Virus record (IMG/VR): IMGVR_UViG_3300037257_000073
From: a virus
Lineage: Duplodnaviria > Heunggongvirae > Uroviricota > Caudoviricetes
Strand: one strand, 5' to 3'
Length of the DNA stretch: 24,685 bases
The position numbers and the translations under genes are program-made. Shown here piece by piece: positions 1,269 through 24,685 of this stretch. Numbering within the stretch: the stretch's first letter is position 1; every line of letters starts with the position of its first letter. A model generated the notes under the pieces. It was not told the origin of the DNA. It made no database searches and worked only from the letters and a program-made list of their open reading frames with translations.

Positions 1269-1271
1269 ACT

Positions 1272-2169: not shown

Positions 2170-2193
2170 TAGTATAGAAAATGAGAATGATAT

Positions 2194-2622: not shown

Positions 2623-2651
2623 AAGTTAGAGGTTCTTTAAAACCTCATCAT

Positions 2652-2724: not shown

Positions 2725-2742
2725 CAAAATGATAGAATAAAT

Positions 2743-3564: not shown

Positions 3565-3595
3565 AAGCCCATTATCAAAAGTAGTGGGCTTTTTT
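3565..3595 (+). terminator. Rho-independent terminator
   Basis: AAGCCCATTAT-caaaa-GTAGTGGGCTT stem followed by a T run. Confidence 0.8.
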
Positions 3596-3656: not shown

Positions 3657-5921
3657 ATGAACGCAGGAAAGAAATTTTTGAGTGACTTAAAACTTCACTC
3701 TGACTACTTAAAGTGGAGACCAGAAGAAGGTCGATACGAAACATGGAATGAAGCATGTGAGTCTATAATCAATGGTCATAAAGATCATTATGCAGATGTA
3801 GACCTAAGTAAAGAATTAGAATACGCATTGAAATATATGCAATCTAAAACGGTACTAGCTTCACAACGAAATCTACAGTATAGAAATGAGCAGATCGAAC
3901 GTAACAATGCAAGACTTTATAATTGTTCATCTATGTATGCTGCTAGAAATAAAATATTCCAAGAAGTATTTTACTTAGCATTAAGTGGTTGTGGTGTAGG
4001 ATTAGGATTACTTATTCCTTTTGTGAATAACATTTCACAAGTAAATAAAAGAACTAAAGGGACTAAAACATTTATTGTTCCCGATTCAATTGAAGGATGG
4101 TCTGATGCATTTGGTGTATTGATGTCATCATTCTTCATTGATAAACAACCTTTTCCAGAGTATGCAGGATACGAAATTAAATTTGACTATTCAGAAGTAA
4201 GAGAAAAAGGTGCATTCATTAGTGGAGGATTCAAAGCTCCAGGACCTGATGGTTTAAAACAATCATTTGAAAAGATCGAAGAGTTCTTAAATAAATGGAT
4301 TACATCAGAAGGCACTAAACTAAGACCAATCGCTGTATGTGATATTCTATGTCACATCTCAGACGCAGTATTATCAGGTGGAGTTAGACGTTCTGCTCTT
4401 AACATGATTGTTGATCCAAATGATGATGAAATGATTAATGCTAAAGTTGGTAACTGGAGAACTAATAACCCACAACGTGGAAGAACAAATAATTCGGTGT
4501 TACTTCTTAGAAGTTTAACCGGAAAAGAAGAATTTGAAAAGCTTGTTAAAATGAATGATGGATATTCTGACATTGGTTTTGCATTTGCTAACTCATGGTT
4601 TGATATGTTCAATCCTTGTTTCGAAATTCTTAAACACCCAATTCTTCATTCAAAAATTAGTACAAAAATAAATGATGTATCTTATGATAAGATAGAAGAA
4701 TTTATTAGAGATAATGAAGACAAACTAGGTGTAGCATTCTGTAATCTTTGTGAGATTAATGCAGAACAATGTGATATAGTTGAGAATTTTTATTCTGCGT
4801 GTATTGCTGGTGCAATCATTGGAACACTACAAGCAGGTTATACATCATTTCCTTATCTTGGAGAAACCACTGAAAAGATTGTAAGACAAGAAGCTCTATT
4901 AGGAGTATCTGTTACAGGATGGATGAATAACCCAATGTTGTTTAACACCGACATTTTAAAACATGGTGCATCTTTAGTTAAAGAAACAAACAAGACAATA
5001 GCTGAAAAGATTGGAATTAATCAAGCTGCTAGAACGACATGTGTTAAACCATCGGGTAATGCATCTGTAGTATTGGGAACTGCGTCAGGTATTCATCCTG
5101 AACATTCTCAAAAGTATTTTAGAATCATGCAACTAAACAAAGAAAACGATACAGCCAAATGGTTGAACAAACATATGTCTTATCTTTTAGAAGAAAGTGT
5201 TTGGTCAAGTACTGGATCTGATTATGTTGTATTTGTTCCTATTGAGAATCCTATTGAGGGATTATATAAGAAAGACGTAAAAGGTGTTAAACATCTTGAA
5301 CTAATAAAACTAGTACAATTAAATTGGGTAAATGAGGGAACTAATCGCGATCTATGTGCATATCCTGATGTGAATCATAATACATCTAATACTGTTATTG
5401 TTGATGATCAAAAAGCTGTTATAGATTATATTTGGAATAACAAACATGACTTTACAGCAGTATCCTTTATATCTGATTACGGAGATAAAGATTTTACACA
5501 AGCTCCATTCACATCTGTATCTTCATTAGATCAACTAATGAGTGACTATGGAAAAGGTGCATTATTCGCATCTGGATTAATTGTTGATGGACTACATTAT
5601 TTTAACGACAATCTTTGGATTGCTTGTGATATGATTAAAGATAAATCAGTTCCTATTACTGGAACAAGAGAACAAGTAATGCTTAAGAAATATTGGTTGG
5701 CTAGAGCAAAGAAATTTGCTAACAACTTCTTTGGAGGAGATTTACAAAAGACTGTATATTGTTTAAAAGATGTACATCTATTTCATAAATGGGAAGTAAT
5801 TAATAGACAATTTAAACCAGTTGACTTTGGAGAGATTCTAAACAAGCCAACATATAAAGACATTAGTGACACAGCGGCCCAAGCTTGTAGCGGAGGTTCA
5901 TGTGAGATCACTAGATTATAA
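3657..5921 (+). CDS. nrdJ: Ribonucleotide reductase catalytic subunit, most like monomeric class II (RTPR/NrdJm)
   Basis: 754 aa with LYNCS, GGVRRSA, NPCFEI, CNLCEIN, TCVKPSG and C-terminal CSGGSCE motifs. No nrdB in the window. All 14 Trp codons are TGG. Confidence 0.8.
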   Translation: MNAGKKFLSDLKLHSDYLKWRPEEGRYETWNEACESIINGHKDHYADVDLSKELEYALKYMQSKTVLASQRNLQYRNEQIERNNARLYNCSSMYAARNKIFQEVFYLALSGCGVGLGLLIPFVNNISQVNKRTKGTKTFIVPDSIEGWSDAFGVLMSSFFIDKQPFPEYAGYEIKFDYSEVREKGAFISGGFKAPGPDGLKQSFEKIEEFLNKWITSEGTKLRPIAVCDILCHISDAVLSGGVRRSALNMIVDPNDDEMINAKVGNWRTNNPQRGRTNNSVLLLRSLTGKEEFEKLVKMNDGYSDIGFAFANSWFDMFNPCFEILKHPILHSKISTKINDVSYDKIEEFIRDNEDKLGVAFCNLCEINAEQCDIVENFYSACIAGAIIGTLQAGYTSFPYLGETTEKIVRQEALLGVSVTGWMNNPMLFNTDILKHGASLVKETNKTIAEKIGINQAARTTCVKPSGNASVVLGTASGIHPEHSQKYFRIMQLNKENDTAKWLNKHMSYLLEESVWSSTGSDYVVFVPIENPIEGLYKKDVKGVKHLELIKLVQLNWVNEGTNRDLCAYPDVNHNTSNTVIVDDQKAVIDYIWNNKHDFTAVSFISDYGDKDFTQAPFTSVSSLDQLMSDYGKGALFASGLIVDGLHYFNDNLWIACDMIKDKSVPITGTREQVMLKKYWLARAKKFANNFFGGDLQKTVYCLKDVHLFHKWEVINRQFKPVDFGEILNKPTYKDISDTAAQACSGGSCEITRL

Positions 5922-5937
5922 ACTTAACAAACAATTT

Positions 5938-6648
5938 ATGGGAAAAGGCACACGAGAAAAGCGTACTGAGAAACGCGAGAAAAACAGATTACCCGAAAAA
6001 CAATCTAACTTAGTAAATGATTTCAAACCAAAGAATGAGAAACAACAAGAGTTTATTAACCTTATAAATGATAGAGAGATTATCATTGCTACAGGTCCTG
6101 CTGGAACAGGTAAGACATATGTAACATTAGCAACAGCTTTATCATTATTAGGTTCAATCTATAAAAAGGTTATTCTTGTAAAGTCAGTAACTACTATTCC
6201 CGGAGAAGAAATAGGATTCCTTAAAGGTGGAATGGAACAGAAAATGGAACCATTTATAATGTCTTATATGTGAAATATTGATAAGATCTGCGGAGATAAA
6301 TCTGCACAGAACTTACTTGATAAAAAAATAATTGAAGTATTACCACTAGCTTTTATTAGAGGTTTATCAATTGATAATGCTATTGTAATAATCGATGAAG
6401 CACAAAACATAGATAATCATACTTTTAAAACAATGATGACTAGAATTGGAGAAAACTCAAAATACATTCTTCTTGGAGATAGTGAACAAATAGATAGACG
6501 TAAGAAAAGCGAATCGTGTTTAGCGAAAGTTATTGAGATATTTACTGATTCAGATATTATTGGATCAATAGAATTTAAAGATGAGGATTGTGTGAGAAAT
6601 CCAATCATTCCTATAATTTTATCTAAACTAAGAGAGAACGGAATCTAA
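5938..6648 (+). CDS. phoH: PhoH-family ATPase (236 aa, one in-frame TGA at 6271)
   Basis: Walker A GPAGTGKT, GEEIGFLKG, LAFIRG, Walker B IIDEAQN, TRIGENSK and LGDSEQID are all in one frame across TGA 6271-6273. Confidence 0.92.
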
Positions 6649-6653
6649 GTTAT

Positions 6654-6681
6654 AAGGGAGCATGTAAATGCTCCCTTTTTT
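6654..6681 (+). terminator. Rho-independent terminator
   Basis: AAGGGAGCAT-gtaa-ATGCTCCCTT followed by TTTT, directly after phoH. Confidence 0.9.
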
Positions 6682-6702
6682 CTGTATATACTAAAATGTG
6701 AT

Positions 6703-6722
6703 TTGTGAGATATATCTTACAA
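6703..6722. promoter_or_regulatory. 20-bp near-perfect palindrome, candidate operator
   Basis: TTGTGAGATA|TATCTTACAA (one mismatch), between the terminator and the next promoter element. Confidence 0.4.
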
Positions 6723-6773
6723 TTTTATTTTAAATTTATACATGGTTATTATTTTTATGACAAAAATTATTAA

Positions 6774-6781
6774 TACCTTTG
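6774..6781 (+). promoter_or_regulatory. Bacteroidota-type -7 promoter element
   Basis: TACCTTTG (TAnnTTTG) in the intergenic gap upstream of the long operon starting at 6867. Confidence 0.55.
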
Positions 6782-6866
6782 TACAAATATAATGGAGATA
6801 TGAATATGTATAAATGAAAAATTAAAGTTAAAGACAAACAATTTATTACATAAATAAAGATTAAAA

Positions 6867-7325
6867 ATGACAGAATTACTAGTAGGCGGTGCAGTAACAA
6901 TTGCAGTATCAGCATTTACTTTCCTTTTAGGAAAGGGTAAAAATCAAGCTGAAACAGAAAAGCTTGAAAAAGAAACAGAGAAAATAGAAATCGAGACTAA
7001 GTTCGATGAGGTTAAATTACTTAAAGAAATTAATCAAAACTTATCAGATCAATACGAAAAAAATGATAAGAGATGGACTGAACGTTACGCCGAAATGGAA
7101 AAAAAGTGAATGACTATTGTAAGCCAATATGAAGTTTATAAAACTCAAACTGAAAAACGTATTTGTGAACTTGAAGAAATTGTAAAGAATCAAGATAGAG
7201 ATAAATGTTTAGGTGATTTATGTCCTACTAAAATAGAATATAATAAGATCCTAGCAAAAAGATTAGAGAGAAAAAGAAACTCCGCTATGAAAAAATTTAA
7301 TCAAAGCGGTACAAAACAGGAATAA
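6867..7325 (+). CDS. N-terminally membrane-anchored coiled-coil protein (152 aa with TGA 7107=Trp); possibly holin-like or lysis-associated
   Basis: Hydrophobic N-terminus (LLVGGAVTIAVSAFTFLLG) followed by a long coiled coil. The two track ORFs join in frame at TGA-ATG. Confidence 0.6.
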
Positions 7326-7329
7326 GAAT

Positions 7330-8256
7330 ATGGATAATGCGAATGTAAAATTTAATGAATTGAAAGTAGATAAGGAAGATAGCTGCGTAATGTATAATGA
7401 CGAGCTCCACAAATATTGGACAAAGAAAACCAATCAAGCGTGTATATCAGCAACTACACTAATCCATAAATTTGGAACATTCGATCCAATCTTCTGGAGT
7501 GCTTATAAAACATTAGAATCACTCATAACAGAAGATGAATTTAAAACAATTAAACCAACTCTTTTAGATAGAAAAAATTTTAAAGATGAACACTACGAAT
7601 CCTTTGGTATAACTAAGGAAACGTTTGAAGAAAGAAAAGCCGAAATTCTAAAAGAATGGGATAGAAAACGAGATGAGTCTTGTATAAGAGGTACAGCAAT
7701 CCATAAGCAAATGGAAGATGGACACTTAGATGGAAAGACTGCTGAGTTACAATATTTAAATTTGGGAGGTTCGTTTAAAACAGACATTACTAACAATCTA
7801 AAACCTGGAGAACAAGGTGTTTATCCAGAATTACTTTTAAGTAGAGTATCCGATGATGGGGAACTTAGAATTGCAGGTCAAGCAGATTTAATAATAGTAG
7901 ACGGATATGATGTCTACATTTTAGATTATAAGACTGGAAAGAAGATGGATACTAAATCTTATTTCGACCGTAAATTAAAGAGATCATCTAAAATGAAATA
8001 TCCTTTAAACAACCTTGATGATTGTAACTTCATGCATTATTCTATGCAATTAAGTTTATATGCTTGGATGATTCAAAAAGCTAATCCTCTTTTTAATATA
8101 AAGATGCTCTTACTTATTCACATTGATCACGACGGTAATGTAAAAAACTATGAGTGCGATTATTTAAAAGCAGATGTGGAAAGAATGCTTGGATATTATA
8201 AAACCCAAATTAAAAATGAAGAATTTAAAAAATCCAGAGAAAAAATTGTATTTTAA
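7330..8256 (+). CDS. PD-(D/E)XK superfamily nuclease (Cas4/exonuclease-like)
   Basis: SATTLI, RGTAIH, IAGQADLII...ILDYKT and HYSMQLSLYAWMI motifs. All 4 Trp codons are TGG. Confidence 0.85.
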   Translation: MDNANVKFNELKVDKEDSCVMYNDELHKYWTKKTNQACISATTLIHKFGTFDPIFWSAYKTLESLITEDEFKTIKPTLLDRKNFKDEHYESFGITKETFEERKAEILKEWDRKRDESCIRGTAIHKQMEDGHLDGKTAELQYLNLGGSFKTDITNNLKPGEQGVYPELLLSRVSDDGELRIAGQADLIIVDGYDVYILDYKTGKKMDTKSYFDRKLKRSSKMKYPLNNLDDCNFMHYSMQLSLYAWMIQKANPLFNIKMLLLIHIDHDGNVKNYECDYLKADVERMLGYYKTQIKNEEFKKSREKIVF

Positions 8257-8587
8257 AATAGCCGTCGGAATTTTTGTATTCCTATTGGTGTGTATAGCAT
8301 TCTCAATACAGAACGACAAATACAAAGTCTTAGATAATAATTATAAGATTGAACAATTAAAGGTTGACAGTTGTAATAAGAAAATAAAAGCATATGAATT
8401 ATTGAACAGAAAAGCAGATAGCACTATATGAGTACTAGAGAAAAAGAATGATTCTCTTGGAGATATAAAACCAATAATATTAATGTACTATGATAAGAAA
8501 ATTAAAAGTATTAACAGTGCTTCTGCTTATGAGCACGCTCGTTGGATGGACTCAATCGTCACCAAAGTGAACAGTATGAAAAAGTAA
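8216..8587 (+). CDS. Type II membrane protein (123 aa, TGA 8429=Trp); i-spanin-like topology
   Basis: ATG 8216, basic N-terminus, TM segment IAVGIFVFLLVCIAFSI, then a helical region. The frame continues past the TGA to TAA 8585-8587. Confidence 0.65.
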
Positions 8588-8942
8588 TCCTGATACTATT
8601 ATTACTTACAATTACACAAAAACTGATTTGACTAACGTTAGATTATATGTTACTGGATTGGAAGAAACTCGAGAGTTATATAACATCGAAATACAACAAT
8701 CTAAAATAAAGGATTCTATAATTATTGAAAAAAATAAAAAATTAGATAACTTTAAAAATATAGTAATAGAAAAAGATTCTATTATAGGTTATACTGTTAC
8801 AGAGTTTAATAAAGCAGACAAATGGGGAAAATCTCAAGAAGTCTTAAAAACTAAATATAAAAAACAAGCTGCAAGAACTCCATTATTTATGGGTATTAGT
8901 AGTGCAATAGGATTTATATTATGTCTATTATCAATAAAGTAG
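8490..8942 (+). CDS. Signal-peptide protein with coiled coil and C-terminal hydrophobic helix (150 aa, TGA 8568 and 8577=Trp)
   Basis: Reading through two TGAs restores the start MIRKLKVLTVLLLMSTLVGWTQ. C-terminus PLFMGISSAIGFILCLLSIK. Overlaps the previous gene by 98 nt. Confidence 0.7.
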
Positions 8943-9196
8943 CACAAGGGTTCTTCAATGAACTAATGAATAAAGAAGCAGAAACACACACCAAACGAAT
9001 GATTCATTGTAAACAATGTAAATTGTTATATAATGATAGTTTGTTTGGAGAAACATGTAATTCTGAATTATATGTAAATCCGGAAACAAATGAAGTTTCT
9101 ACAACAGATAAACCAGGATTTAAGAATGGATGCGGATGTATCCTTAGATCCAAGACACGAGTACCAGATGCACACTGCCCTTTAGGCAAATGATAA
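8921..9196 (+). CDS. Small Cys-rich, probably Zn-binding protein ending CPLGKW (91 aa)
   Basis: CKQC...C...CGC...KTR...CPLGK, then TGA(Trp) and TAA. The CPxxKW ending is a recurrent phage motif. Confidence 0.75.
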
Positions 9197-9209
9197 CAAT
9201 GAAAATGTA

Positions 9210-10658
9210 ATGATAATGAAAAATGTTTTATTTAATGGAGATGCAAAAGACATCTTAATTGAAGGAGTGAATTTAATAGGCGATGCTGTGTCAACAACAT
9301 TCGGACCTAATGGAAAAAATGTTATAATCAAAGGACTCTCAGGAGTGTATATAACAAAGGATGGAGCAACCGTTGCAAAATATGTAAACGATGATGATCC
9401 ATTTATTAGTACAGGTATTGAACTTATAAAAGGTATTGCAACTAAAACAGCAACTGATGTTGGAGATGGTACAACCACTGCAACTATTCTTGCTCAAACT
9501 TTAGTTAATACTTTAAAAGATAAGACTGAAAATCCAATTGCTATAAGTAGAGAGTTAGATAAAGAACTCAAACAAGTTATAGAATATTTGGAAAAGAATA
9601 AAAGAACAATCACAAGTGTAGAAGACTTAATTAAAGTTGCCACAGTATCTACAAATAATGATATTGAACTTGGTAAACTTGTAGCTGAAACTTATTTTAA
9701 AGTTACAAAAGATGGAGTAGTAACTATAGAAGATTCACAAGATACACATAATTCAGTTGTGTTTTCACAAGGAGTTAAAATTGAATCAGGATATAACTCA
9801 CCATACTTTGTTAATACAACTAAGAGTACATGTGAACTAGAAAATGTATTAATTGCAGTTTTTAGAATACCTTTAACTGAGATTAAAGATATTGACGAAG
9901 TATGTAGTAGAGCTATGAGAGAAAAGAAAGCACTTCTTATTATTGCTCCAAAAATGGAATCCACAATACTAAGAACTCTAGTACATAATAATAATACAGG
10001 AAATCTAAAGTCTTGTTTTATTAGTTCACCCGGACATGGTATCTATAGAGAAACTTTACTTGATGATATCGAATGTATTGCTTCTACTTCAGTTTGTGAA
10101 AAAATTATAGTATCAAAAGATACTACATATCTAATAGGATGTGAATCTAACCAATCGGTTATTGATGCTAAAATATTAGAAGTAAAAAATACACTTAGTT
10201 GTAGTACAACTGAGTTTGAAATGACGTTTCAAAGAAAGAGATTAGCTAATTATATTGGTGGTATAGCTACTATATTTGTTGGTGGATATTCTCAAGTTGA
10301 AATACAAGAAAAGAAAGATAGATTAGAAGATGCTATTTGTGCGGTTAGAGCTGCTATGACAGATGGTATATTACCTGGTGGAGGTTTCTCATTACTTAGA
10401 GCTGCTAAACTTTTAGACTTAAAATATTTAAGTAAAGTATTGGTAATGCCTAATTTAATACTATCTGAGAATAAAGCAGATGGTATAGATATTTTCAATT
10501 TCTGGGAAGGTAAAGACTATAAGACTAGACAAATTGGAGACATGTATGAAATGGGAATCGTAGATCCTTTCCTAGTAACAAAGATAGCTTTAGAAAATGC
10601 AGTATCAGTAGCATCACTGATCTTAACTAATGGATGCACAATATTAAATATAAATTAA
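9210..10658 (+). CDS. groEL: Phage-encoded GroEL-like chaperonin (482 aa)
   Basis: TFGPNGKNV, ITKDGATVAK, GDGTTTAT, KDRLEDA, GILPGGG and GIVDP motifs. No GGM tail. Confidence 0.95.
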   Translation: MIMKNVLFNGDAKDILIEGVNLIGDAVSTTFGPNGKNVIIKGLSGVYITKDGATVAKYVNDDDPFISTGIELIKGIATKTATDVGDGTTTATILAQTLVNTLKDKTENPIAISRELDKELKQVIEYLEKNKRTITSVEDLIKVATVSTNNDIELGKLVAETYFKVTKDGVVTIEDSQDTHNSVVFSQGVKIESGYNSPYFVNTTKSTCELENVLIAVFRIPLTEIKDIDEVCSRAMREKKALLIIAPKMESTILRTLVHNNNTGNLKSCFISSPGHGIYRETLLDDIECIASTSVCEKIIVSKDTTYLIGCESNQSVIDAKILEVKNTLSCSTTEFEMTFQRKRLANYIGGIATIFVGGYSQVEIQEKKDRLEDAICAVRAAMTDGILPGGGFSLLRAAKLLDLKYLSKVLVMPNLILSENKADGIDIFNFWEGKDYKTRQIGDMYEMGIVDPFLVTKIALENAVSVASLILTNGCTILNIN

Positions 10659-10661
10659 AAA

Positions 10662-11018
10662 ATGACAATGATTATGGAAAAAGAAATTATGCCCCTTGGA
10701 TTAAATATATTTGTACAGCCTTATGCTGTTAATCCTTATTTGCAAGTAGTATCTGCTGGTGGACTACAATTAACTAATGGAGAGTTTCAAAATCCTGATA
10801 GTGGAGAAGTTGAACAACTAACATCACATATTAAATGTGGAATAGTTTTAGAAGTTGGAAAAGATTGTAAACAAGTAAAAGTTGGAGATGATGTATTTTA
10901 TAATGCGCATACAACTACACCAATTCCTTTTATGGGAAGGGGTTTTATACTAACACACGAACCTGGTGTTATGTGTATTATAAATGAAGGGTTAAAAGAA
11001 AGATTTAAAAACAATTAA
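10662..11018 (+). CDS. groES: GroES-like co-chaperonin (118 aa)
   Basis: PLGLNIFVQP...SAGGLQL...GIVLEVG...VKVGDDVFY follows the Cpn10 pattern; directly downstream of groEL. Confidence 0.8.
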   Translation: MTMIMEKEIMPLGLNIFVQPYAVNPYLQVVSAGGLQLTNGEFQNPDSGEVEQLTSHIKCGIVLEVGKDCKQVKVGDDVFYNAHTTTPIPFMGRGFILTHEPGVMCIINEGLKERFKNN

Positions 11019-11079
11019 ACTATACAATTATGTATAATAATGAATGATTACAATTTGTAATAATGCAAAAAGAAACACT

Positions 11080-11319
11080 ATGATTAATGAACAACGAAAC
11101 AACGATAAGCAGTTTTTCCTACCTGGAGATGTAGTAAGTCTTAGACAAGATGTACCAAATAAACCCACTATGATTGTGGTAAAAAAAGTTACTAAAACTA
11201 TTAGAACTTCTGATGTAAAGAATGATTTCTTCCAAGGAATTCAATGTATGTGATTCACAACAACTGGGGAGATTGTAAAAGATACTTTTAATACTAAAGA
11301 TCTTTTGAAAATACAATAA
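11080..11319 (+). CDS. YodC/DUF2158-like small beta-barrel protein (79 aa, TGA 11251=Trp)
   Basis: FLPGDVVSLR...PTMIV...IQCM-W(TGA)-FTTTGE...F...DL. The CxWF motif is restored by readthrough. Confidence 0.7.
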
Positions 11320-11915
11320 TGAGATCTGGAATATATTTAATTAGAAATATAAATAACAATAAATGTTATATTGGAAGTTCTAATAATTTAGAGTATAGAA
11401 AATGTATGCATTTTTCTAAATTAAAACATAATAAACATATAAATCAACATCTTCAAAATTCATATAATAAATATGGAAAAGAATCTTTTATATTTACTAT
11501 TATTGAAGAATGTGAATGTATGAAAGAAATTCTATTAGATAGAGAACAATATTATATTAATACAATGAATCCTGAATATAATATTTTAAAAATTGCAGGA
11601 AGTACATTAGGTTTTAATCATTCTATTGAAACTAAACTTAAAATTAGTAATTCTACAATAGGTATTAAAAAATCTAAAGAACATTGTGAAAATATAAAAA
11701 ATTCTCAAAAAGGTAAAACTTTAACAGATGAACATAAACAAAAATTATCAGAATCTGCAAAAAATAGAACTAAACAAGGACATACTACTAAAATAAATAT
11801 AGATGGAATTAACTATGATTCTTTAAAAGAAGCATCAGAGTTATTAGGAATAAAATATAACACTCTTCAAAGAAGATTAGTTAATCCTAATTTTCTAAAT
11901 TACATTAAATTATAA
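11319..11915 (+). CDS. GIY-YIG homing endonuclease with NUMOD3-like repeats (198 aa)
   Basis: SGIYLIRN...YIGSS, REQYYI...PEYN, GFNHSIETKLKIS, LTDEHKQKLSES and a C-terminal HTH. Confidence 0.9.
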   Translation: MRSGIYLIRNINNNKCYIGSSNNLEYRKCMHFSKLKHNKHINQHLQNSYNKYGKESFIFTIIEECECMKEILLDREQYYINTMNPEYNILKIAGSTLGFNHSIETKLKISNSTIGIKKSKEHCENIKNSQKGKTLTDEHKQKLSESAKNRTKQGHTTKINIDGINYDSLKEASELLGIKYNTLQRRLVNPNFLNYIKL

Positions 11916-11931
11916 TCACTAAACAATTAAA

Positions 11932-13119
11932 ATGACCGACGAAAAGAAACAAGAATTATTTCCGTATTTCGCTTACACTTATTCTAAACAAATAAATCCA
12001 GAGAAATACGGAAATTTATCTTCTGATGAATGACAAACTGTAATACAGGATAGTCCAGAAGATATAGATCAGATTAGCCAGGCTGCTGGACAACTTGCAG
12101 ATGAAGATTGAGATGCACTCGATCAACAATACTCTCAAGAACAACCTCAAGAAAATCAAGCGCAATATGCTGCAAAAGGAGCCAAAATTAAAAAACTAAA
12201 ATCTATGAAATGTGGATGTGGTTGTAATATGGTTACTGTTAAAGAAGAAGGTGGTAAAATGTCATCTAAATGTGCTTGTAAATGTGGAGGTAAAATTAAA
12301 CATCAAAAAGGTGGAAATGTTATACCATTAAAAAATGATGCAACAACTATAGCAAAAAATAAAGAAAGAATTAAATCACGTCCTGCTATTGCAACTAAAG
12401 ATAGTACAGATGAATTATCTGAAAATTTAGCACATTTATCAATGGATAGTTATACAAGTTCTGGAGATTTAAAAAATCAATATGATAAAAAATTTGATGC
12501 AACTGCTTCTGCTTTAACTCGTCAAAAAAATAAAGGAAAATCTGGCTTTGATGCTAATGGATTTCCTAAAAAACAAAATGGTGGAATAATAAACAATAAA
12601 AAATCAAACAACATGAAAGAAAATTTAGGATCTATTCAAAGTATATTAGATTCATTTAAAAAAGGTGGTAAAATGAAATGCCAAAATGGTGGAGATCTAA
12701 GTCCTAAATCAGCAATAGTTGCTAAGAATGGTTCTAAAGCTCCTAAAAGAATTACAACAGAAAATAAATCTGTTGAAATAGAAACCGCTAAATGTGGAAA
12801 AAAATTAGCTAAGAAACAAGTTGGTGGTAAAGTTAAAGCATCTATTAATACTGCTGCTTCTGCAACTAGTAAATTACCAAAAATGAATTCTCAAAGTGGA
12901 GCTAATTCAAGTACTGTGCCAACAAATCCTGATGGATCTGCAAAAGCTCCAGCAAGAATTAAAAAAGGACAAACTGGAATTACAGCACCAGCACCCAAAA
13001 AAAATAAATTGCCAATTGTAAATGGTAAAAAAGTTCCTGATGATGGAGCTGACTACTCTGTACAAGGTCCAGCAAATAAATCTGAAAAGGTAAAAAAATC
13101 TTTTTCTCCTAAAAAATAA
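11932..13119 (+). CDS. Low-complexity protein with acidic N-terminus and repeated xxGG motifs (395 aa, TGA 12031 and 12109=Trp); candidate internal virion protein
   Basis: ATG 11932 is in frame with the track ORF 12205..13119. About ten K/Q-x-G-G motifs in a basic region. Confidence 0.7.
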
Positions 13120-13124
13120 AAATT

Positions 13125-13700: not shown

Positions 13701-13702
13701 TT

Positions 13703-14536
13703 ATGAAAGGATTTATATATAAATTAATATCACCAAGTGGTAAATGTTATGTTGGACAAACAGTCAACATGAAAAAAAGATTGAGTGAATATAAAACATT
13801 TCATAATTGTAAAAATCAGAAAAAACTATTTAATGCTATTAAGAAATATGGTTTTAATAATTTTGAACATAGTATATTAGAAGTAATAGATTTCGAATTA
13901 AAATCAGAATTACAAGATAGATTGAATGAATTAGAAATTGAATATATTTCAAAATATGATTGTGTAAAAACTGGATATAATATATGTAGTGGTGGAAATC
14001 AACATAGATTAGGAGTAAAAGAAACTGAAGAACAAATTCAAAAGAAAAAAGATCGTTGAACTGATGATATGAAAAAGAATCAATCTGAAAAATTTAAAGG
14101 AGAATTAAATCCAAGATTTGGAAGTTCTGAAAAAACTTATTCAAAAAAAGTTAATCAATATGATAAAACTGGAAAATATATAAAAACTTGAGAAAGTGCT
14201 GCAATTATTGAAAGAGAACTAGGTTATAGTGCTAAAAATATAGGTAGTGTTTGTTTAGGAAAGAATTTAACAACATGTGGGTTTATTTGAAAATTTTATA
14301 TTGATTCTAAAGATAATATAATTCCAGAAAAAAGCAAAAGAGGAAAACAATCAACTAAAGGAATTCATACTATTTCTATAATACAATATTCAAAAGATAA
14401 TATTTTTATTAAGGAATTTGTTAGTATAACTGATGCAGAAAAAGAATTAAATATAAATCATGCTAATATTTCAGCATGTGCTAAAGGTAAAAGAAAAACA
14501 GCGGGAGGTTTTATATGAAAATACTTGATGGAATAA
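13703..14536 (+). CDS. GIY-YIG homing endonuclease with two NUMOD1-like domains (277 aa, 4 TGA=Trp)
   Basis: GFIY...YVGQT, LEIEYI...GYN, then QYDKTGKYIKT-W and the motifs TCGFI-W-KF and KTAGGFI-W-KY. TGA at 14057, 14189, 14288 and 14516. Confidence 0.9.
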
Positions 14537-16623
14537 CATGAGATTTTGGTCCAGATGATAAAATTGAATATTTCGATAGTTATAAATCTTTCTTTATGAC
14601 TAAATATCGCCCTATTAATGATGTTGATGCATTAGACTTTAATCCTGATTGATTTAGAGAAGATGCAATTAACAAATTAAAAACAGGTAGATATAGTCCA
14701 TCATCTATACCTATGGGTTCTAAAACTCATAGAGATTGATGGAAAGAAAGAATACGTAGATGTAATGAAGGATATGAAGTCAATGGTTATCGTATAACTG
14801 GAGATAATTATTTCTTCATTAATTTTTATAACCTTAAATCTTCTGATTCAGAAACAATTAATCAATCTTATGGATTTCCTGAGTTTCTTGTTTTTCAATA
14901 CGAATATTTCCATTACTTGGAAATGTGTGAAAAATTAAAGAAAGATACTTCAGTACTTAAAAGTCGTGGTATCGGATTCTCGGAAATGGCTTCTAGTTTT
15001 ATAACTAGACCATATACAACAATTCCTAACTTTCGTTCAGTAGTTTCTACGTTTTCAGAAAAGCATTTGAAACCAACACTTGATAAGATATGGATTCAAA
15101 TGGATTGATTAAATGAAAATACAGAAGGAGCTTTCAAAAGGGTTAGAATGGTAGCAAATTCTAAGACTCATAAAAGAGCATCTAAGAAAGATAAAGATGG
15201 TGGTGAAGCGCCAGACAGTCATAAGTCAGAAGTAGAAGGATTAGTATGTGATGAACCCGATAAGTTAAGGGGTGATAGAACACAAATTCTAATTTACGAA
15301 GAAGCAGGAGCAGATCCTGTTTTGATGAAAAAATGAGTTAAAGGTACTGCATTAATAACAGTACTTGGAGGTAAACGCGTTGGTAGAAAGATTGCATTTG
15401 GTACAGGTGGATCATCTAAAGCTAGTTCTATGGAAGGACTTAAAAGAATGACAAATGATCCAACTGCATATAATATTTTACCTGTTAAACATAATTATAC
15501 TAGAGATGGTAGATACATATTAAGTGGATTATTTATTCCAGCTTATAGAGTTGTTTATGATTTAGTTGATAAACGAGGATGATGTAATTTAGAAAAAGCT
15601 AAAGATTGGTATGAACAAGAAAGAATTAAATTAGTTAATAGTCCAAAGGATTTACTAGAATTTAAGTCAGAGTATTGTTTTACTATTGAAGAAGCTCTTA
15701 TACAACATGCTGATAATTTATTTCCTAGAGAAGAACTTGCAGAACAACTTGCACAAATAGAAATTTACAAATCAACTCCTACAATACATTCAGGACATCT
15801 TGTATGAAAACGAGATGGAGATGATAGAGCAGATGGGGTTAAATGAAGAGAGGATGCACAAGATGGAAAAATCCAAATTATAGAACATCCTTTAATGTCC
15901 GAATTAGGGACAGATTATAAAAACTTATACGTAGGTGGAATTGACTCTATTGATATTGGTACTGCTGATTCAGCAAGTGCTGATGGTAAAGGATCTGAAT
16001 TTTGTATTGTTATAAAGAAAAGAGTGTTCGGACAATCTGATCCTGTTTATGTAGCAATGTATAAAGACAGACCTAAAGATCCTAGAGAAGCTTACGATGC
16101 AGCAGCAAAACTATTAACTTATTATGGATGTCAAGCTGTATTAGAATCAACAAGAACAGCTATTATTACTTATTTTAGAGATAAAAAATATTTACATCTA
16201 TTAATGAAAAGACCAAGGTCTACAATGCCTGATGTATCTAAAGGTAATAGTCAAATGTATGGAACTCCTGCAACAGTTAAAGTTATTCTACATTATCGTG
16301 AATTAATATATGATTACATTTTGGATTACTCCCGTACAATGGCGTTTAAAGATATGGTTGATCAATTATTAGATTATACGGATGAAGGAAAGAAAGACTT
16401 TGATATCGTAGCTGCAATGGGAATGTGTGAACTTGGTGATGAAGAAATGTCAGTTAAACGTCCTGAAGCAAAAGAAGTAGAAGGTAAAGGATTCCAAAAC
16501 ATAGGTTGGTGAACAGATAATAAAGGTTATAAACATCATGGTATAATACCAGCAAAAGACAATAGAGATGGACGAGCTAGAATTAGCGCAAGCGATTCGT
16601 GATTATATAAAGAGCTGATATAA
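14515..16623 (+). CDS. terL: Terminase large subunit (702 aa, 10 TGA=Trp)
   Basis: Single frame from ATG 14515 to TAA 16621. Motifs GYRITGDNYFFINFY, LKSRGIGFSEM (Walker A region), LIYEEAG (Walker B), FGTGG, YVGGIDSID and FDIVAAMGM (RNase H-like nuclease). Confidence 0.92.
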
Positions 16624-16840
16624 AGCTGACTATACAGGATTAATAAGAGTTGATAAACTCAATCCTGGTTATAAGTGTGTTTTAGGTATTCCAAGTTACA
16701 TGGTGCAAACCTCATTTGCTATAGACTGTGAAACTGACGAAGAATTCTTAAATTATGTATACACAGAATTAAGAGTTAGAAATTATGTTAGACAAGAAGT
16801 ATATAAAGTATATAGAAACTCTGAAACAAGAGAAGAATAA
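16568..16840 (+). CDS. Hypothetical protein between TerL and portal (90 aa, TGA 16616=Trp)
   Basis: MDELELAQAIRDYIKS-W-YKADY...RVRNYVRQEVYKV...; fills the gap exactly and is absent from the track. Confidence 0.75.
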
Positions 16841-16842
16841 AA

Positions 16843-19038
16843 ATGGATAAACAAATTGACGATAAAGAAAAAGATATAATGGATAATATAGATAGAGCTA
16901 TTAATGAATTGGTTTATGAAAAAACCCAAATCATTAAAGCCTATAACTATTATCATGGTAAAAGAGACCCTGAACAATTCAGACATTTAGAAGAAAATTA
17001 TGGGATAGGTACTCCTACATCAATTGAATTTGTACCATTAGTTAGAAAACACGTAGATGTTTTAATTGGTGAATACTTATCAACGCCAGTTCTTCCTAAA
17101 ATTTCTTGTAAAGACCATACAACATTATCAAATATTGATAGAGATAAACAATTACACATACATGATAACATTGCTAAAGAATTAAATAAGCATTTAAAGA
17201 ATGCTGTATATAGTTCTACAATAGGATCAGATGCTCCTGATAAACAAATTGAATTAGAACTTCAAGAATTACATGAATCACTCGATAGAAATTTTATGTC
17301 TAACTATGAAATAGCAGGACAAAATATAGTTGATTGAACAATGCAATCTCGAATAATTGATTTTGAAAATCAAAGAAAAATATTACTAACAGATTTATTA
17401 GTTAGTGCGACAGCTTATTATAAAGTATGTCCATCAGTTAGTAAATCAAATGTAAAACTTAGAGTATTAAATCCAATAAATACATTCATTGATAGAAATC
17501 CAGAATCACCTTATCTTAAAGATTCGGCACGTTCTGTAATTAGAGATTATTTAACTAAGGATCAAATACTTGCAAAGTATGGAGATTCATTAAAACCTGA
17601 TGATTTAGAATCATTAGATACATTACAAGATTTTGCTAATGATGGATCAGCAACAACTTATCTTAGAAGTTATGATTCAGTTACAGGAAATACAATGTCA
17701 GATGGTATACTTGGGGGATTTGAAATAACTCCTCTATTACCTTATGAAAGAAGTACTTCTAAATATTTTAGAACTTTTCCAGTATATGAAGTTGAATGAT
17801 TAAAGACTGAAAAAGAAGATGACAAATATATTACTAATCGTTATGAAGGTGTACGTATAGCTACTAATATTTATATTACTACAGGTAAATGTGAGGATGT
17901 AGTTAGAAGTGTAGATGATAAAACACATTGTACATTAACAGTAAATGGTATGTTCTATTCTGATAGAAATGGCGATCCTTTCTCTCTAGTATTAAAGACA
18001 GCGAATTTGCAAGACAAATATGACTTGATTAATTTTATGAGAGATAACGTAATATCTGAATCAGGTACTGCGGGAGATTTAATTGATATAGCTCACTTAC
18101 CTAAAGTATTAGGTGCAGATTTAGCTGAAAGATTAATGAAATTTAAAGCTTATGGTAAAGCTGGTATGAAATTATACGATTCTTCACAAGAAGGTCAAAT
18201 GCTTAATACTGCTATGAATGGATTTGATGATACATTAAAATTTAATACTATACAAGCTTTTGATTTAGCGATTCAAAGAATTGAAGATACTTGTTCAATG
18301 ATTACAGGTGTATTTAAAGAAAAATTAGGTGGAATAGAACAACGAGATGCTGTAACAAATGTTGCAGTAGGTGTAAGAAATTCTTCTTATATTACTAAAC
18401 AATACTATCAAATTATGGACTTAATAACAAGAGAAATCTTAATTGATATTCTTAATCTTGCTAAAATTGTTTATAAGAAAGGAATGAGTGGGTCACTTAT
18501 ATTAGGTGATAGATTAAATAAAATATTTACAGCATTACCTGAACATTATACAACAACTGATTATGATATTCATATTGGTGATAGTTCTGAAATTATGAAA
18601 GAACAAGAAACTATCAAACAATTAGGAATGGAATTAGTAAAAGGAGGATTGGTTGATCCAGAAACATTAATTGAAATTATTACATCGAAAGGTTTAACTA
18701 AAATGAAAGAAGATGTTAAGTTATCATTAGCTAAGAAGAAAAAAGAAAATGATCAACTTGGACAATTACAACAACAATCCGAACAATTACAACAACAATT
18801 AAAACAACTTCAACAAGAAAATTCAAAACTACAAGCTCAGGTTGGTAAAAACAATCAAGAGAAAATGGAGATGGATAGAGAAAGATTATCATTCGATAAA
18901 GAACTTGGATGGTATGAAGCTAAAAATTTATCAGAATATAATGCTGCTAAATTGGAAGACGATAAAACAAGAATCAAACTTGAAGGAGCACAATTATTAG
19001 ATGCTAATCATCGTAATGATGAAGTTAGAAACAGCTAA
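16843..19038 (+). CDS. Portal protein (731 aa, TGA 17335 and 17797=Trp)
   Basis: Three track fragments are in one frame. crAss-like portal motifs AYNYYHGKRD, YGIGTPTSIEFVPL, VYEVE-W, LGGIEQRDAV and a Q-rich C-terminal coiled coil; follows TerL. Confidence 0.88.
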
Positions 19039-19048
19039 ACTTATTTAT

Positions 19049-19279
19049 ATGTTTAAAGAACTAAAACAAAGATGGACCACAGAAAGTCCAGCAATATTTA
19101 AAAAAATAACTAATATATCTATTATACTCGGAGGTGCAGCCTTCGGTATATTAGTTATGAATGGAGTTATAGATTTACAACAATATGGAGTTGCTCCAAT
19201 TATTTTTAAGGTTTGTGGATACGTGTTAGTAGCATGTGGTGCAATGGGATTAACTTCTAAAATAACTAAACAAGACTAA
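19049..19279 (+). CDS. Putative holin (76 aa, two TM segments)
   Basis: MFKELKQRWTTESPAIFKKI followed by two hydrophobic helices and a charged C-terminus. ATG 19049 is preferred over the track start, which lies inside portal. Confidence 0.6.
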   Translation: MFKELKQRWTTESPAIFKKITNISIILGGAAFGILVMNGVIDLQQYGVAPIIFKVCGYVLVACGAMGLTSKITKQD

Positions 19280-19284
19280 TAATC

Positions 19285-19896
19285 ATGATTCAAATAAACT
19301 TACTAAGAATTTCACCAGATAGTAAATATCTAGAATTTAGTGTAGAGTGTCCAACAAATTATTTATTTAATAAACTATTTATTAAGAAATATGATGCTAT
19401 ACCAATAAATAGTACAGATGATCTTTGAAGAGATGTATCACATCTATTACAAAGAACTTCTACAAAAGAAATTATGAGAATATCTACTGAGGCTTTAAGT
19501 GGATTTCAAATTGAACCTGGTGTTGATGGTAATTTGGCAAGTACATTATTTTATGTGCAATTTGGAGTAGAGTGAATTGAACCTACACCAGGTAATCCAA
19601 CATTACCAGTACCACTTATACCAGATGTTATTGGAGTAACATCAGATGTAAATAAAGTATATATTCTTTTAAAAGATTACTTACTTAATTTAGATGCAAG
19701 ATGTATTACAACAAATGATTATCAAACATTAATCAGAAATTATATGTTCTTATATGCTCATTTAGAAGCCATGAGACTTGAACGATTTGATGATGCTGAA
19801 ATGTTTTATGATATTATAAAGAAACAATTTATCTCTTGATCACCTTGACTAAGAAGTGATAATTCAAGAGTATTGAATGATTGTAATTGTAAATAA
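19285..19896 (+). CDS. Putative virion structural protein, possibly neck/ring (203 aa, 4 TGA=Trp)
   Basis: Continuous frame from ATG 19285 to TAA 19894, TGA at 19426, 19573, 19837 and 19846; ends CNCK. Absent from the track. Confidence 0.65.
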
Positions 19897-19897
19897 A

Positions 19898-20626
19898 ATG
19901 GAAGAAGTTAAACAATCAATAGTATCAACTACAGTTAAATATTTGAGAAATCTTGAATATTTAGCTATAGATGATAAAAAATTATCAAATGACATAATGG
20001 CTTTAATTGTAGTCGATGAAGTATTTGATTGAGCAAGTTGATCAGGAGAACCTTCAACAGTACAAGTAAAACTAAAGAAATTTAGAAAAGATATAATTAG
20101 AAACAATCCTAAGATTATAGAAGAAATGCAAAGAACTAATGAATTCTATAAAAATGTAAATACACCACAAACTATTTATACATGACAACGTGTATACGAT
20201 AATGTAGATGTAATTACAGTTGATGATCCTAGTGGTATTATTCCAGAACCTTATACACCTCCATATTTCTGAGGTAAAGTTGTAAGTAATACTAAACCAA
20301 GTAAAAATCAATCATTGATTAATTCTGGAACTATGGTTTATGGAGATCCAAGTGAAGCATTAAACATTCCTTACAACTCTAATAATACAGATTATTTATG
20401 GTTTGCAATTCCATCAGATATTCAATCTAAAGCAATATGATATGTTGATAATCAAAATAGTGGAGATATAGGTGGAACAAGAAATCTATTTGATACTGAA
20501 ACTATAATGACAATTAGAATTCCAGAAACACTATTAGATAAAAGTTATAAAATATATATGACTAATTATTCAACACAAGTAGCTTCATTATATGTAGCAG
20601 AATCACTTGGACAAATACCTGCATAA
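19898..20626 (+). CDS. Putative virion structural protein with C-terminal beta-rich domain (242 aa, 5 TGA=Trp)
   Basis: Continuous frame. YLWFAIP...W-YVDNQNSGDIGG...YKIYMTNY resembles beta-sandwich domains of phage tail/head appendage proteins. Confidence 0.65.
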
Positions 20627-20627
20627 T

Positions 20628-22085
20628 ATGGCAATAGATTTTAATGATAACTTACAAATACGAGCACCAAAATCTATTGATGATAGATACGGTCCTTGAG
20701 AAACAATTGAAGAGGGGTTAATTAATGTACCTCGTCCATATAGACATGATAAATTAACTTTAAATATTAACGGAGTTGAATATTGATTTAGAAACGGGTT
20801 AGAAGATGTTGATTTAATAGTTAAAGAATATGGTAGTGGTGGAGATACAAGTAAATGAGAACAATCTACAATGTTAGTCCAAGATGTTAAATATGGAAGA
20901 CTTTATAATTGATATATTGTAATAGATTCTAGAAGTATAGCACCTAGTGGTTGACATATTCCAACTTTATCTGATTTTCAAACATTAAGTAATTTTTTAG
21001 GTGGAGATGATGTTTCAGGTGGAAAATTAAAAGAAACAGGAAATACTTATTGAGAAAGTCCAAATGTAGATGCTTCTAATAGTGTTAATTTTAATGCTAG
21101 AGGTTCAGGAGTAAGAGATACAGATGGTTCATTTTATTTAATAAATAGACATTTGGGTTTTTGAGCTTATGATGAATATAGTAATTCAGAAGGTAAACTA
21201 ATTGATATTAGTAATGATAATGCATATGTTTTATTAAGTGTTCCAAGTATAAAAGAAACTGGAAGATCAATTAGACTTATTAAAGATAATTCAATTAATG
21301 AAGGTAGTATTGTAATTGATGGAATTACTTATCATTCAGTAACTATTGGTAATCAAGTTTGATTACAACAGAATTTAGCTACAACCCATTATCAAAATGG
21401 TGATTTAATTGGTTCTGATTTTAGTGGTACAGAAGGGGCTGTAGCTGCGTACAATAATGATGAAAATACTGTTTATAATCTTATAAATGGAGAAGATCCT
21501 ATTCATATTAAACCAAAAGATAATAAAAGAATTAATGCAGATATTATAGATGGGTTGCCAATAAAAAATCCTGTAATTATTAACTTTACTGAAGCTGGTG
21601 TTTTTGATGTTTTAAATACTTATGACATAATAATAACAAATGGTACAAATATTAACTTATGATTACCAGTAATAAATGATGTTGTTGACGGAAAACAATT
21701 AATATTTAAGAATGAAAATTCTACAAATGTTAGTAATATACTGGTTTTAGATCTTGATGCGCAAATTGAAAATTTAGGACATGGAGTACCTTATCAAATT
21801 CCACCTAATAGTTCTATAACATTAATAACTAATAGAATTAGTAATAAATGGGATATTATAAGTGAATATATTCCACCTAAAAATATAATACAAGAAACTC
21901 CAACTGGTGCTACAGATTCTGTTAATACTGAATTCGTTTTATCTAAAGAACCAAAAGATATATTTAACTTACAGGTTTACGAAGATTCGGGTGTATCATA
22001 CGTTGTTTCTTATTTTGATGCAAATACAATATATTTAATTGATACCCCAGGGTCACATATAACTTGTAGATATATTCCAAAATAA
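20628..22085 (+). CDS. Virion/tail-associated protein with a FISUMP (Fib_succ_major)-like domain (485 aa, 9 TGA=Trp)
   Basis: YGRLYN-W, PSG-W-HIPT, LGGDDVSGGKLKE...W-ESPN, SIRLIKD and TIGNQV-W-LQQNL motifs. Invisible in the code-11 track. Confidence 0.8.
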
Positions 22086-22107
22086 TTATATATTTTAAAA
22101 TAAATAA

Positions 22108-24685
22108 ATGATACAAAGCAATATACTATTAACAGATATTGTAATTCCTACAGTAGATAATTTAATAGTAACTGATGTACCAGATGAAGTAACAGTTAAA
22201 GATAGCGATATTATATCAACTACTTTAACTGTTACTTTATTAAATTCTGAATTCATTCAACATGAATCTCAGAATAATCCATCATTATTAGATTTGAATA
22301 CAACAGAATTCAATAATCTTTCAAATGAAATAGTAGTAACACCTACTATACAAAATAATGGGATGTTATTAAATACTGATATTCCGGTATACGATAATGC
22401 AGTTCCTACAGATTTATCATTGAATACTAATTCACCAAGTAATAATGATGTATTAGGATCATATGAATCTGTAAATGCAATCCCAAGTATCACACCAGGA
22501 TCTGGAAGTTTATTTCCATCCGATCCAACATTACTTCCTCAAATTAATAGTTTGTTTGAATTATTACAATACTTATCAGAAGTAATGATGAGATTTAATA
22601 GTGACCCAAATTATTATATGCAAGATGATTTTGCAATATTAGTTAAAACGATTACTAATGCTTTGATTCATTTATATTTAAATGCTCCATTATCTACTGG
22701 AGAAGTAGAAGGATTATATGCAGCATTAGGAACTAAAGTTGATAAAATTCTCGGAAAAGGATTAAGTACTAATGATTTAACAGATGAATTAAAAGCTGCT
22801 TATGATTCCGCGTTCTTAGAAACACATTTACATAGTAATAAAGCAGCATTAGATTTAGTAAGTGGTAAGAATACTGGAGATCAAGATTTATCAGTATTAC
22901 AACCAAAAGAAACTGGAAAAGGATTATCTACTAATGATTTTACTAATACATATAAAAATAAATTAGATGGAATTCAAACTGGAGCAGAAGCAAATGTAAA
23001 TGCTGATTGAAATGCAACTAGTGGAGATACTTTAATATTAAATAAACCTAATATTCCAAGTATAACAGGATTAGCAACTGAAACTTATGTTCAAAATTAT
23101 GCAGAACCTAAAAAAGGAACTGATGATAATTATGTAACTGATTCAGAAAAGACAAATTTACATGCACCACATAGTGATGATCAAGATCTATCTGGATTAG
23201 TTGTAAAAATTCCTGGATATTCTTTAGTATTAAATGTAGATATTGCTAAAATACACGTAGCTCATAGTGATGATCAAGATTTAACACCTTATGAAACTAT
23301 TGCTAATAACAATATTAAATTAGCTACTAAAGAACCAGCTAATGCTAATATACAAGCTCACATTACTAATACAAATAATCCTCACTTTACAACTAAAGCA
23401 CAAATTGGATTAAGTCAAGTAGATAATACTAGAGATATAGACAAACCTATATCAATCTTAACTCAATTAGCTTTAAATACTAAAGAACCTAATATAACAT
23501 CAGGATTAATTACTGATTACTGAAGAGGTGATAAAACATTCCAACCTTTAAATAAGGCTGCTGTAGGTTTAGATAATGTAGATAATACATCAGATTTATT
23601 GAAACCAATATCTACTGCTACACAAAGTGCATTAGATTTAAAATTAGATGTATCATTAAAAGGAGCTAATAATGGATTGGCAGAACTTGATTCAAATGGC
23701 TTTGTAAAAAATTCACAATTACCATCTTATGTAGATGATGTATTAGAATATACTTCTATAAGTTTATTTCCTACAGTTGGAGAATCTGGTAAGATATACA
23801 TAGACACAACCACTAATTTAACTTATAGATGAGGTGGAACTACTTATGCTATTATCAGCTCATCTTTAGCTTTAGGAGAAACTTCAGCAACAGCATATAG
23901 AGGAGATCGTGGAAAAATTGCTTATGATCATTCACAAATAAATAGCGGTAATCCACATGGATTAACTTTATTAGATATTGGAGCTCAAGCTCAATTAAAT
24001 GGTACTGGTCTAGTTAGAATGTCTGGAACTTCTATTACTTATGATAATACATCATATGTTTCTGGAACTCCATGAACATCAGTTGGATATTGATACTCAG
24101 GTAGCCATCCTACCACAACTAGTGGATATGGTTTACCAGATTATCCTACAACTTTACCAGCTAGTGATGTTTATTCATGAGCTAAAGCTTCTACAAAACC
24201 AAGCTACGCTTATTCAGAAATAACTTCTAAACCTACATTATTATCTCAATTTACTAATGATTTAGGTAATTATGGTTCATTTGTTACTGGTACTCCTTGG
24301 ACTGGATATGGATATCTTACTGGTATAACTGGAACTCAAGTTACTACAGCATTAGGATACACTCCCTATAATTCTACAAATCCTAGTGGTTATATTTCTA
24401 GTATAACTAAATCCCAAGTTGAAGGAGTTCTTACTGGACTAATAACTACTCATACACATAACTATTTATCTAGTTTTACTGAAACTGACCCTATATTTAT
24501 TGCATGGAATAAATCTACTGGCATAAGCATTACTAAGTCGCAGGTTAGTGATTTTCCAACTAATCTCAGTCAATTTAATAATAATCTTGGTAACTACGGT
24601 GGATGGATAACTGGTATCAACTCAGGAATGGTTACTACTGCTTTAGGTTATACTCCACTACCTACTAGAACATTCGGTTCAGCAG
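22108..24685 (+). CDS. Tail fibre / long tail-appendage protein, partial (>859 aa, 6 TGA=Trp so far)
   Basis: Frame stays open to the window end with TGA=Trp. Repeats GKGLSTND x2, HSDDQDL x2, GLxxVDNTxDxxKPIS x2, VTTALGYTP x2 and LSQFxNxLGNYG x2. Confidence 0.8.

Follow-up and report, generated by a model that had tools for sequence, protein, structure and literature searches.

Two code dialects in one crAss-like phage: a selected and conserved split between TGA and TGG tryptophan codons

Gene content of the window and the meaning of TGA

The window analyzed here is a stretch of 24,685 nucleotides (G+C content, 29%) corresponding to bases 11520–36204 of the 64,836-bp IMG/VR virus record IMGVR_UViG_3300037257_000073 (G000), and it belongs to a crAss-like phage in which two dialects of the genetic code coexist, tryptophan (Trp) being written as TGG in one part of the gene set and mostly as TGA in the other. 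This split is real, selected and common to relatives of the phage, and the pattern has already been published. The crAss-like phage makes up about 36 kb of the record, including the part upstream of the window (L001), and the record then runs into a second phage (L002 and L003, record positions 36075–64836). Relatives are labelled L004–L093, together with G001, which is complete, distant and 176,910 bp long; more distant IMG/VR relatives measure 174–177 kb. Positions are those of the window unless otherwise indicated.

Read in the standard code, genes for packaging and virion proteins are fragmented, whereas with TGA as a sense codon they are intact. All listed genes are on the plus strand; Trp codons were counted per gene under code 4 and are given below, and hereafter, as TGA/TGG.

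2194–2622, plus strand: small early open reading frame(s) (ORFs), with a conserved 63-residue N-terminal domain, a TGA at codon 68 (2395–2397) and a possible second ORF start at 2410
2652–2724, plus strand: tRNA with anticodon UCA, which reads UGA (ARAGORN; Rfam RF00005, 62.9 bits)
2722–3309, plus strand: HNH endonuclease (PHROG 10822, E = 6e-22), 0/2
3565–3591, plus strand: terminator-like hairpin ending the tRNA cassette (11-pair stem and T run)
3657–5921, plus strand: ribonucleotide reductase (RNR), class II monomeric type (PHROG 367, E = 6e-78; PDB 1L1L, E = 3e-13), 0/14
5866–6648, plus strand: PhoH-like ATPase (Pfam PF02562, E = 3e-57, the match spanning the TGA at 6271–6273), 1/0
6654–6677, plus strand: terminator-like hairpin 3' of PhoH (10-pair stem and T run)
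7330–8256, plus strand: PD-(D/E)XK exonuclease (PHROG 298, E = 1e-21; Pfam PF12705), 0/4
8490–8942, plus strand: 150-residue protein whose translation has a signal-peptide-like N-terminus, 2/2; the best change point falls inside it
8921–9196, plus strand: Cys-rich 91-residue protein, whose lone TGA is the final codon, followed by TAA (alignment with five orthologues)
9210–10658, plus strand: GroEL-like chaperonin (Pfam PF00118, E = 9e-41), 0/1
10662–11018, plus strand: GroES-like co-chaperonin (Pfam PF00166, PHROG 3188), zero Trp codons
11044–11319, plus strand: gene at which the TGA-rich block opens in most relatives, 1/0 (orthologues 2/0 in L085–L090)
11319–11915, plus strand: GIY-YIG homing endonuclease (PHROG 314, E = 3e-32), zero Trp codons
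13703–14536, plus strand: GIY-YIG homing endonuclease (PHROG 314, E = 3e-24), 4/0
14515–16623, plus strand: large terminase subunit (TerL), crAss-like type (PHROG 6681, E = 2e-70; tblastn to Crassvirales TerL), 10/4
16843–19038, plus strand: portal protein (PHROG 6547, E = 4e-51), 2/1
19285–20626, plus strand: two proteins of 203 and 256 residues, without Pfam or PHROG match, together 10/1
20607–22085, plus strand: 492-residue protein with a Fib_succ_major (FISUMP) domain (Pfam PF09603, E = 1.5e-29), 9/1
22108–24685, plus strand: N-terminal part of a 1579-residue tail-fibre-like protein (PHROG tail-fibre families)
24556–24657, unstranded: 102-bp repeat (self-BLAST), 99% identical to the last 102 bases of the record

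Judged by homology, TerL and the portal protein are of crAss type. A tblastn search with TerL hit 130 records at 25–44% identity, the majority of them from crAss-like phages of Bacteroides and Flavobacterium; identity was 25–31% to Crassvirales of Bacteroidota and 40–44% to two unannotated gut phage records. The 55-kb gut relative L004 (MT835539.1) carries a tRNA with anticodon UUA, and its TerL was matched in three pieces across 4.2 kb (29988–34244), pointing to introns or to endonuclease genes inserted in it.

In alignments of TerL, portal and PhoH, the TGA codons of the window face 41 TGA, 15 TGG, 17 Phe/Tyr and 2 other residues in the relatives, and individual Trp columns alternate between TGA and TGG in both directions. 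On these alignments TGA is read as Trp in the crAss-like phage. A meaning of Gly (code 25) was rejected for both phages on the record, since TGA aligns with Trp. The tRNA(UCA) is 73 nt long and has an A1-U72 pair and G73, as in bacterial tRNA-Trp. A tRNA(UCA) also lies upstream of the equivalent gene block in L005, L006, L085, L086 and L089, and it was called at 93 nt in L005 and at 95 nt in L006. An earlier, sequence-only reading of this DNA, which took TGA for a Trp codon and invoked a suppressor, is supported in this respect by the alignments and by the tRNA(UCA) that ARAGORN and Rfam detect.

The TGA at 2395–2397 is the lone one before 6271. The orthologue in L085 ends after 64 residues and that in L005 matches residues 1–63 only; this TGA is probably a true stop, which an active tRNA(UCA) would probably read through, fusing the protein with the 63-residue domain to a Trp-rich ORF of 70 residues.

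The tryptophan-codon split and its conservation in relatives

Along the window, the Trp codons are distributed as follows (TGA/TGG):

264–3488: 1/10
RNR, 3657–5921: 0/14
5866–11018: 6/10
11044 to the window end (24684): 46/11

The early genes plus the RNR (1/24) differ from the late genes (46/11) with p = 2.6e-11 in a Fisher test, and the RNR by itself differs from the late genes with p = 1.9e-8. Over the crAss-like part of the record, a single change-point test placed the switch at 8547–8568, with 8/61 before it and 49/13 after it, a value matched by 0 of 2000 permutations. These counts, like those of TerL, the FISUMP protein and the RNR listed above, agree with the ones given by the sequence-only reading, which had spoken of a sharp partition; the split stands but is less sharp than that, the zone 5866–11018 being mixed.

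A compositional cause was rejected, other A/G codon pairs being A-rich across all blocks: for Lys, Glu, Gln, Leu and Arg, the fraction of codons ending in A is 0.75–1.0 in each. Within the RNR, 58 TGA triplets occur out of frame and none in frame, and the other A/G pairs are 77–100% A-ending; even at 77%, 0 TGA among 14 Trp codons has p = 1e-9. The bias is specific to Trp. In the late genes, the TGA fraction of 46/57 (0.81) compares with 0.91 A-ending codons in the other two-fold pairs, a difference on the low side (binomial p = 0.017).

The RNR block could be free of TGA through recent acquisition from a standard-code phage, being too young to have drifted, an origin that the sequence-only reading had itself raised. 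Pointing to such a transfer, most of the 80 closest contigs (approximately 75 IMG/VR contigs, with RNRs 66–70% identical) are standard-code phages whose RNR has 14 TGG; furthermore, L085–L087 lack the RNR at the equivalent position, and the G+C content at its third codon positions (0.19) slightly exceeds that of the adjacent genes. The history of the gene contradicts a recent transfer. The RNRs of the recoded phages G000, L005, L006 and L071 form one clade (support 100/98) with long branches (0.25–0.57). Their identity to the RNR of the window (L005, 78%; L006, 72%; L071, 67%) follows the same order as that of TerL (L005, 82%; L071, 67%), a comparison covering L005 and L071, whose loci include TerL, and the gene order RNR-PhoH-nuclease is common to these phages. 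Moreover, at conserved Lys, Glu and Gln positions the A/G third positions of these four RNRs have diverged to the level expected of independent sequences, meaning that they are saturated, yet 53 of their 56 Trp codons are TGG, while the TerL Trp columns of the same taxa flip freely. The adjoining exonuclease and the entire left arm avoid TGA likewise, and the exonuclease orthologues of L005, L006, L071, L085–L087 and L093 have 0 TGA. Because the Trp codons stay TGG despite saturated synonymous A/G sites, the TGA-free state of the RNR is held by long-term selection, and we give almost no credence to a recent transfer, which the tree, the synteny, the synonymous saturation and the A-ending bias of the other RNR codon pairs all oppose.

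The split recurs in relatives with 45–82% TerL identity, as seen in the following early versus late counts of orthologues (TGA/TGG, with Fisher p):

L071: 0/23 versus 11/8, p = 2e-5
L085–L090 group: 0/6 to 0/11 versus 14–22/7–9, p = 4e-5 to 3e-3
L088, within the L085–L090 group and too sparse: 1/2 versus 22/10, p = 0.27
L005: 5/16 versus 18/8, p = 0.003
L093: 0/8 versus 7/13, p = 0.07
L092: 3/2 versus 11/5, p = 1.0
L006, uninformative, its locus ending before TerL: 2/20 versus 0/4

It is conserved in L071, in the L085–L090 group except L088, and in L005, and the orthologue of 11044–11319 marks the onset of TGA in most relatives. On this comparative evidence, the split is a family trait.

Within the window, the fibre gene has its own discontinuity, with 6 TGA up to 24178 and solely TGG from 24298. 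The last three TGG of the window (24298–24605) lie within or beside the 102-bp repeat, and a TGG-only fibre cassette may begin approximately 260 bases before the repeat, so that its start would be upstream of the exact repeat.

Regarding the remainder of the record, the 554-residue protein at the left end (0/17) and several late proteins had no match in Pfam or PHROG, and the 554-residue protein was not found in the records of the three relatives searched for it. The minus strand upstream of the window carries two RAGATH-1 hammerhead ribozymes (Rfam RF03152; 67.6 and 59.4 bits), at L001:4498-4566 and L001:6980-7057, among small leftward early genes.

Host, mechanism and rival explanations

Among the genes of the second phage on the record are those for a serine integrase, TerS, a second TerL, portal, capsid and tape measure. 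The final 102 bases of the record align with 24556–24657 in the same reading frame at the protein level, and in MT835917.1, a relative of the second phage, a homologue of the record gene 40420–40626 lies downstream of the tail genes. Most likely, the record walks from a fragment of the crAss-like phage, through the 102-bp fibre repeat, into a closed 28.66-kb temperate siphovirus. This second phage is TGA-recoded (Trp) in nearly all lytic genes, while its integrase (0/4), the fibre C-terminus and the next gene have solely TGG; MT835917.1, 75% identical to it, uses the standard code. Neither ARAGORN nor Rfam at E up to 1 detected a tRNA in the second phage.

The second-phage TerL has its closest relatives in prophages of Paludibacter (91%), Bacteroides, Parabacteroides and Phocaeicola, genera that use the standard code, and the recoded relatives of the second phage are prophages in Paludibacter and Bacteroidaceae genomes. 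In a Bacteroides neonati MS4 contig, a related prophage has a tRNA(UCA) directly upstream of the terminase gene (L113:9493-9586); this locus is little recoded, with a coding density of 0.82 under code 11 versus 0.86 under code 4. The presence of the fibre segment in both phages suggests a common host, and the Fib_succ_major domain is among the observations bearing on the host. Because TerL matches Crassvirales of Bacteroidota and the fibre segment is shared with a phage that has Bacteroidales prophage relatives, the host of the crAss-like phage is likely a standard-code member of the Bacteroidales.

A host that itself reads UGA as Trp (code 4), with some other cause for the TGG preference of the early genes, would account most simply for the co-assembled 28.7-kb temperate phage, which is recoded and in which no tRNA of its own was found. 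We nevertheless judge it very improbable: relatives of the temperate phage are integrated in the Bacteroidales genomes named above; a code-4 host would leave unexplained why TGA is avoided specifically for Trp, through synonymous saturation; and, according to Borges et al. (bioRxiv 10.1101/2021.08.26.457843), approximately 90% of the genes carry TGA in phages of changed-code hosts.

The explanation that we consider probable, taken as a whole, is one of constraint. The phage, with a family size of approximately 175 kb, would decode UGA as Trp with its own tRNA(UCA) in a standard-code Bacteroidales host, and genes translated before enough tRNA(UCA) is present would be kept free of in-frame TGA by purifying selection. 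To the constrained set would belong the genes of the left arm and of the tRNA cassette, together with the replication initiator, RNR and exonuclease. In later-translated genes (packaging, portal, virion and some homing endonucleases), TGG would give way to TGA by drift under the strong A/T pressure of the genome, nearly to equilibrium, with the consequence that late proteins could not be completed without tRNA(UCA). We infer the genetic code of the host, the order of expression and the tRNA as the limiting factor.

The motif TAnnTTTG, a Bacteroidetes-type -7 element, occurs 19–85 nt upstream of three unit-leading genes (window positions -1496, 2162 and 6774) and of no late gene; it stands before the tRNA cassette, the replication initiator and the unit that begins at 6867. 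Overall it is not enriched (113 found versus approximately 94 expected), and its placement is suggestive only. A sigma-70 promoter scan was uninformative, with fewer sites than in shuffled sequence.

Several observations weigh against the constraint explanation. The labels "early" and "late" were assigned from gene function and position alone, and the host of the crAss-like phage is read indirectly, from its kin and the co-assembled phage. The boundary is a zone rather than a line, given the counts of 5866–11018. PhoH, which the terminator-like hairpins at 3565–3591 and 6654–6677 bracket with the RNR as one unit, needs the suppressor: a conserved Trp (alignment column 163) is written as TGA in G000 and in L005, and as TGG in four relatives. 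Three conserved Trp codons of the L005 RNR (L005:3801-6059, 78% identical) are TGA, whereas G000, L006, L071 and approximately 75 standard-code phages have TGG there. Directly after the replication initiator genes, within an otherwise TGA-free early region, a GNAT-like acetyltransferase gene has a count of 5/0; it encodes 123 residues and extends to window position 8 (record 11156–11527, equal to L001:11156-11527; Pfam PF00583, 22.3 bits; motif REQGLGTKM). Finally, in the distant relative G001 the split is present but blurred. Its minus-strand block of virion genes and giant ORFs (1283–3123 residues) is mostly 50–100% TGA, while the plus-strand block at 15–90 kb is approximately 10–35% TGA, with pockets of 47–70% at 45–55 kb, and ARAGORN found no tRNA(UCA) in this genome.

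Several TGA codons of the mixed zone are harmless or doubtful. The one at 7107 is directly followed by ATG. In the 91-residue Cys-rich protein, the TGA, which together with the TAA occupies 9191–9196, codes for a conserved C-terminal Trp, which is TGA in G000, L005 and L006 and TGG in L071, L085 and L093, and a standard-code reading drops this single residue. Such a C-terminal TGA may be a tolerated entry point of TGA into non-late genes.

As an adaptive timer, the same system would have TGA actively placed in late genes, with the build-up of the tRNA timing the packaging and virion proteins and with nucleotide supply, nuclease and chaperones deliberately exempt, much as the sequence-only reading had proposed. 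The dependence of late genes on the tRNA may serve as a timer or may be a by-product of the constraint. The first TGA comes early in many late genes (relative position 0.01 in TerL and 0.02, 0.06 and 0.08 in three others) and the mean relative position is 0.41 for TGA versus 0.55 for TGG, in a test that is weak owing to few codons. Single, fully recoded genes stand in TGA-free surroundings (the GNAT gene, 5/0; the GIY-YIG endonuclease, 4/0), a pattern that Borges et al. read as gating, and the tRNA(UCA) heads its block, behind the Bacteroidetes-type -7 motif. Early first TGA codons and these recoded genes leave some room for gating.

Against a timer, late TGA lies below the level of the other codon pairs and gives no sign of enrichment, and relatives have approximately 0.6–0.7 TGA in the same late genes, with Trp columns flipping both ways. 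The supposed exemptions fare unevenly. Independence of nucleotide supply from the suppressor fails as a rule, given the TGA at a conserved Trp of PhoH and the 3 TGA tolerated by the RNR of L005, the closest relative. The TGA-free exonuclease is correct as a count and differs from the late genes (p = 0.003), although not from its own block (p = 0.23). GroEL and GroES, with one Trp codon in total, are statistically empty as an argument. The data do not require a timer: plain constraint on early genes suffices, because late TGA (0.81) is not above the drift expectation (0.91). We therefore regard an adaptive timer as unlikely.

A further idea, which we hold to be doubtful, is that UGA decoding by the tRNA of the crAss-like phage acts as a shared licence at two levels. 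If this were true, single genes within the phage would stand behind their own TGA gates in standard-code units, as the GNAT gene or PhoH beside the TGA-free RNR might, and, between phages, the lytic genes of the 28.7-kb temperate phage could be translated in full only in cells provided with the decoder by the crAss-like phage.

Comparison with known recoded phages

The idea of an early-to-late switch is already in print (Yutin 2021; Borges 2021), and our data open no new kind of biology. Our additions are modest: the Trp-specific control, evidence of selection from synonymous saturation, the conserved boundary, and the RNR of L005 starting to take up TGA. Published surveys rarely show gene by gene that early genes are kept TGA-free by selection through synonymous saturation while late TGA stands at or below the level of A/T drift, and the weight shifts from recoding evolved as a timer to early genes that are constrained and late genes that drift. 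The RNR of G000 (0 TGA) versus that of its closest relative L005 (3 TGA) offers a concrete contrast.

In opal-recoded zeta-group crAss-like phages, recoding is found mainly in late (structural and packaging) genes (Yutin et al. 2021, PMC7886860). In Lera, a zeta crAss-like phage with the same habit, the helicase and RNA polymerase genes are interrupted by TGA as well (PMC12386605). The phage studied here resembles this group in its crAss-type TerL, its relatives of approximately 175 kb, TGA meaning Trp, the tRNA(UCA), mainly late-gene recoding, frequent homing endonucleases and a class II RNR, which some members of that group have. Unlike in Lera, the replication initiator, RNR and exonuclease are TGA-free here. 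TerL is only 26–31% identical to named Crassvirales and 40–44% identical to the two unannotated gut records, so that the phage is at most a candidate member of the zeta group.

Mycoplasma and Spiroplasma phages, whose hosts use code 4, also read TGA as Trp in an A/T-rich genome. They rely on the decoder of the host and carry TGA throughout, whereas the crAss-like phage keeps TGA out of one part of its genome and has its own tRNA.

Borges et al. described code-change genes kept in the standard code, recoded homing endonucleases and an early-to-late switch model. Like their TGA-recoded Agate and Jade phages, the crAss-like phage would infect a standard-code host and has early and replication genes compatible with the standard code, structural and lysis genes being those that accumulate TGA in Agate and Jade; code-change machinery in the standard code, low GC, a strong preference for TAA stops and recoded homing endonucleases are further points in common. 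It differs in belonging to another lineage, and no RF1 or TrpRS gene was seen within this fragment. Beyond the study of Borges et al., the present analysis contributes a Trp-specific control and a test of selection, with late TGA found at or below the level of drift.

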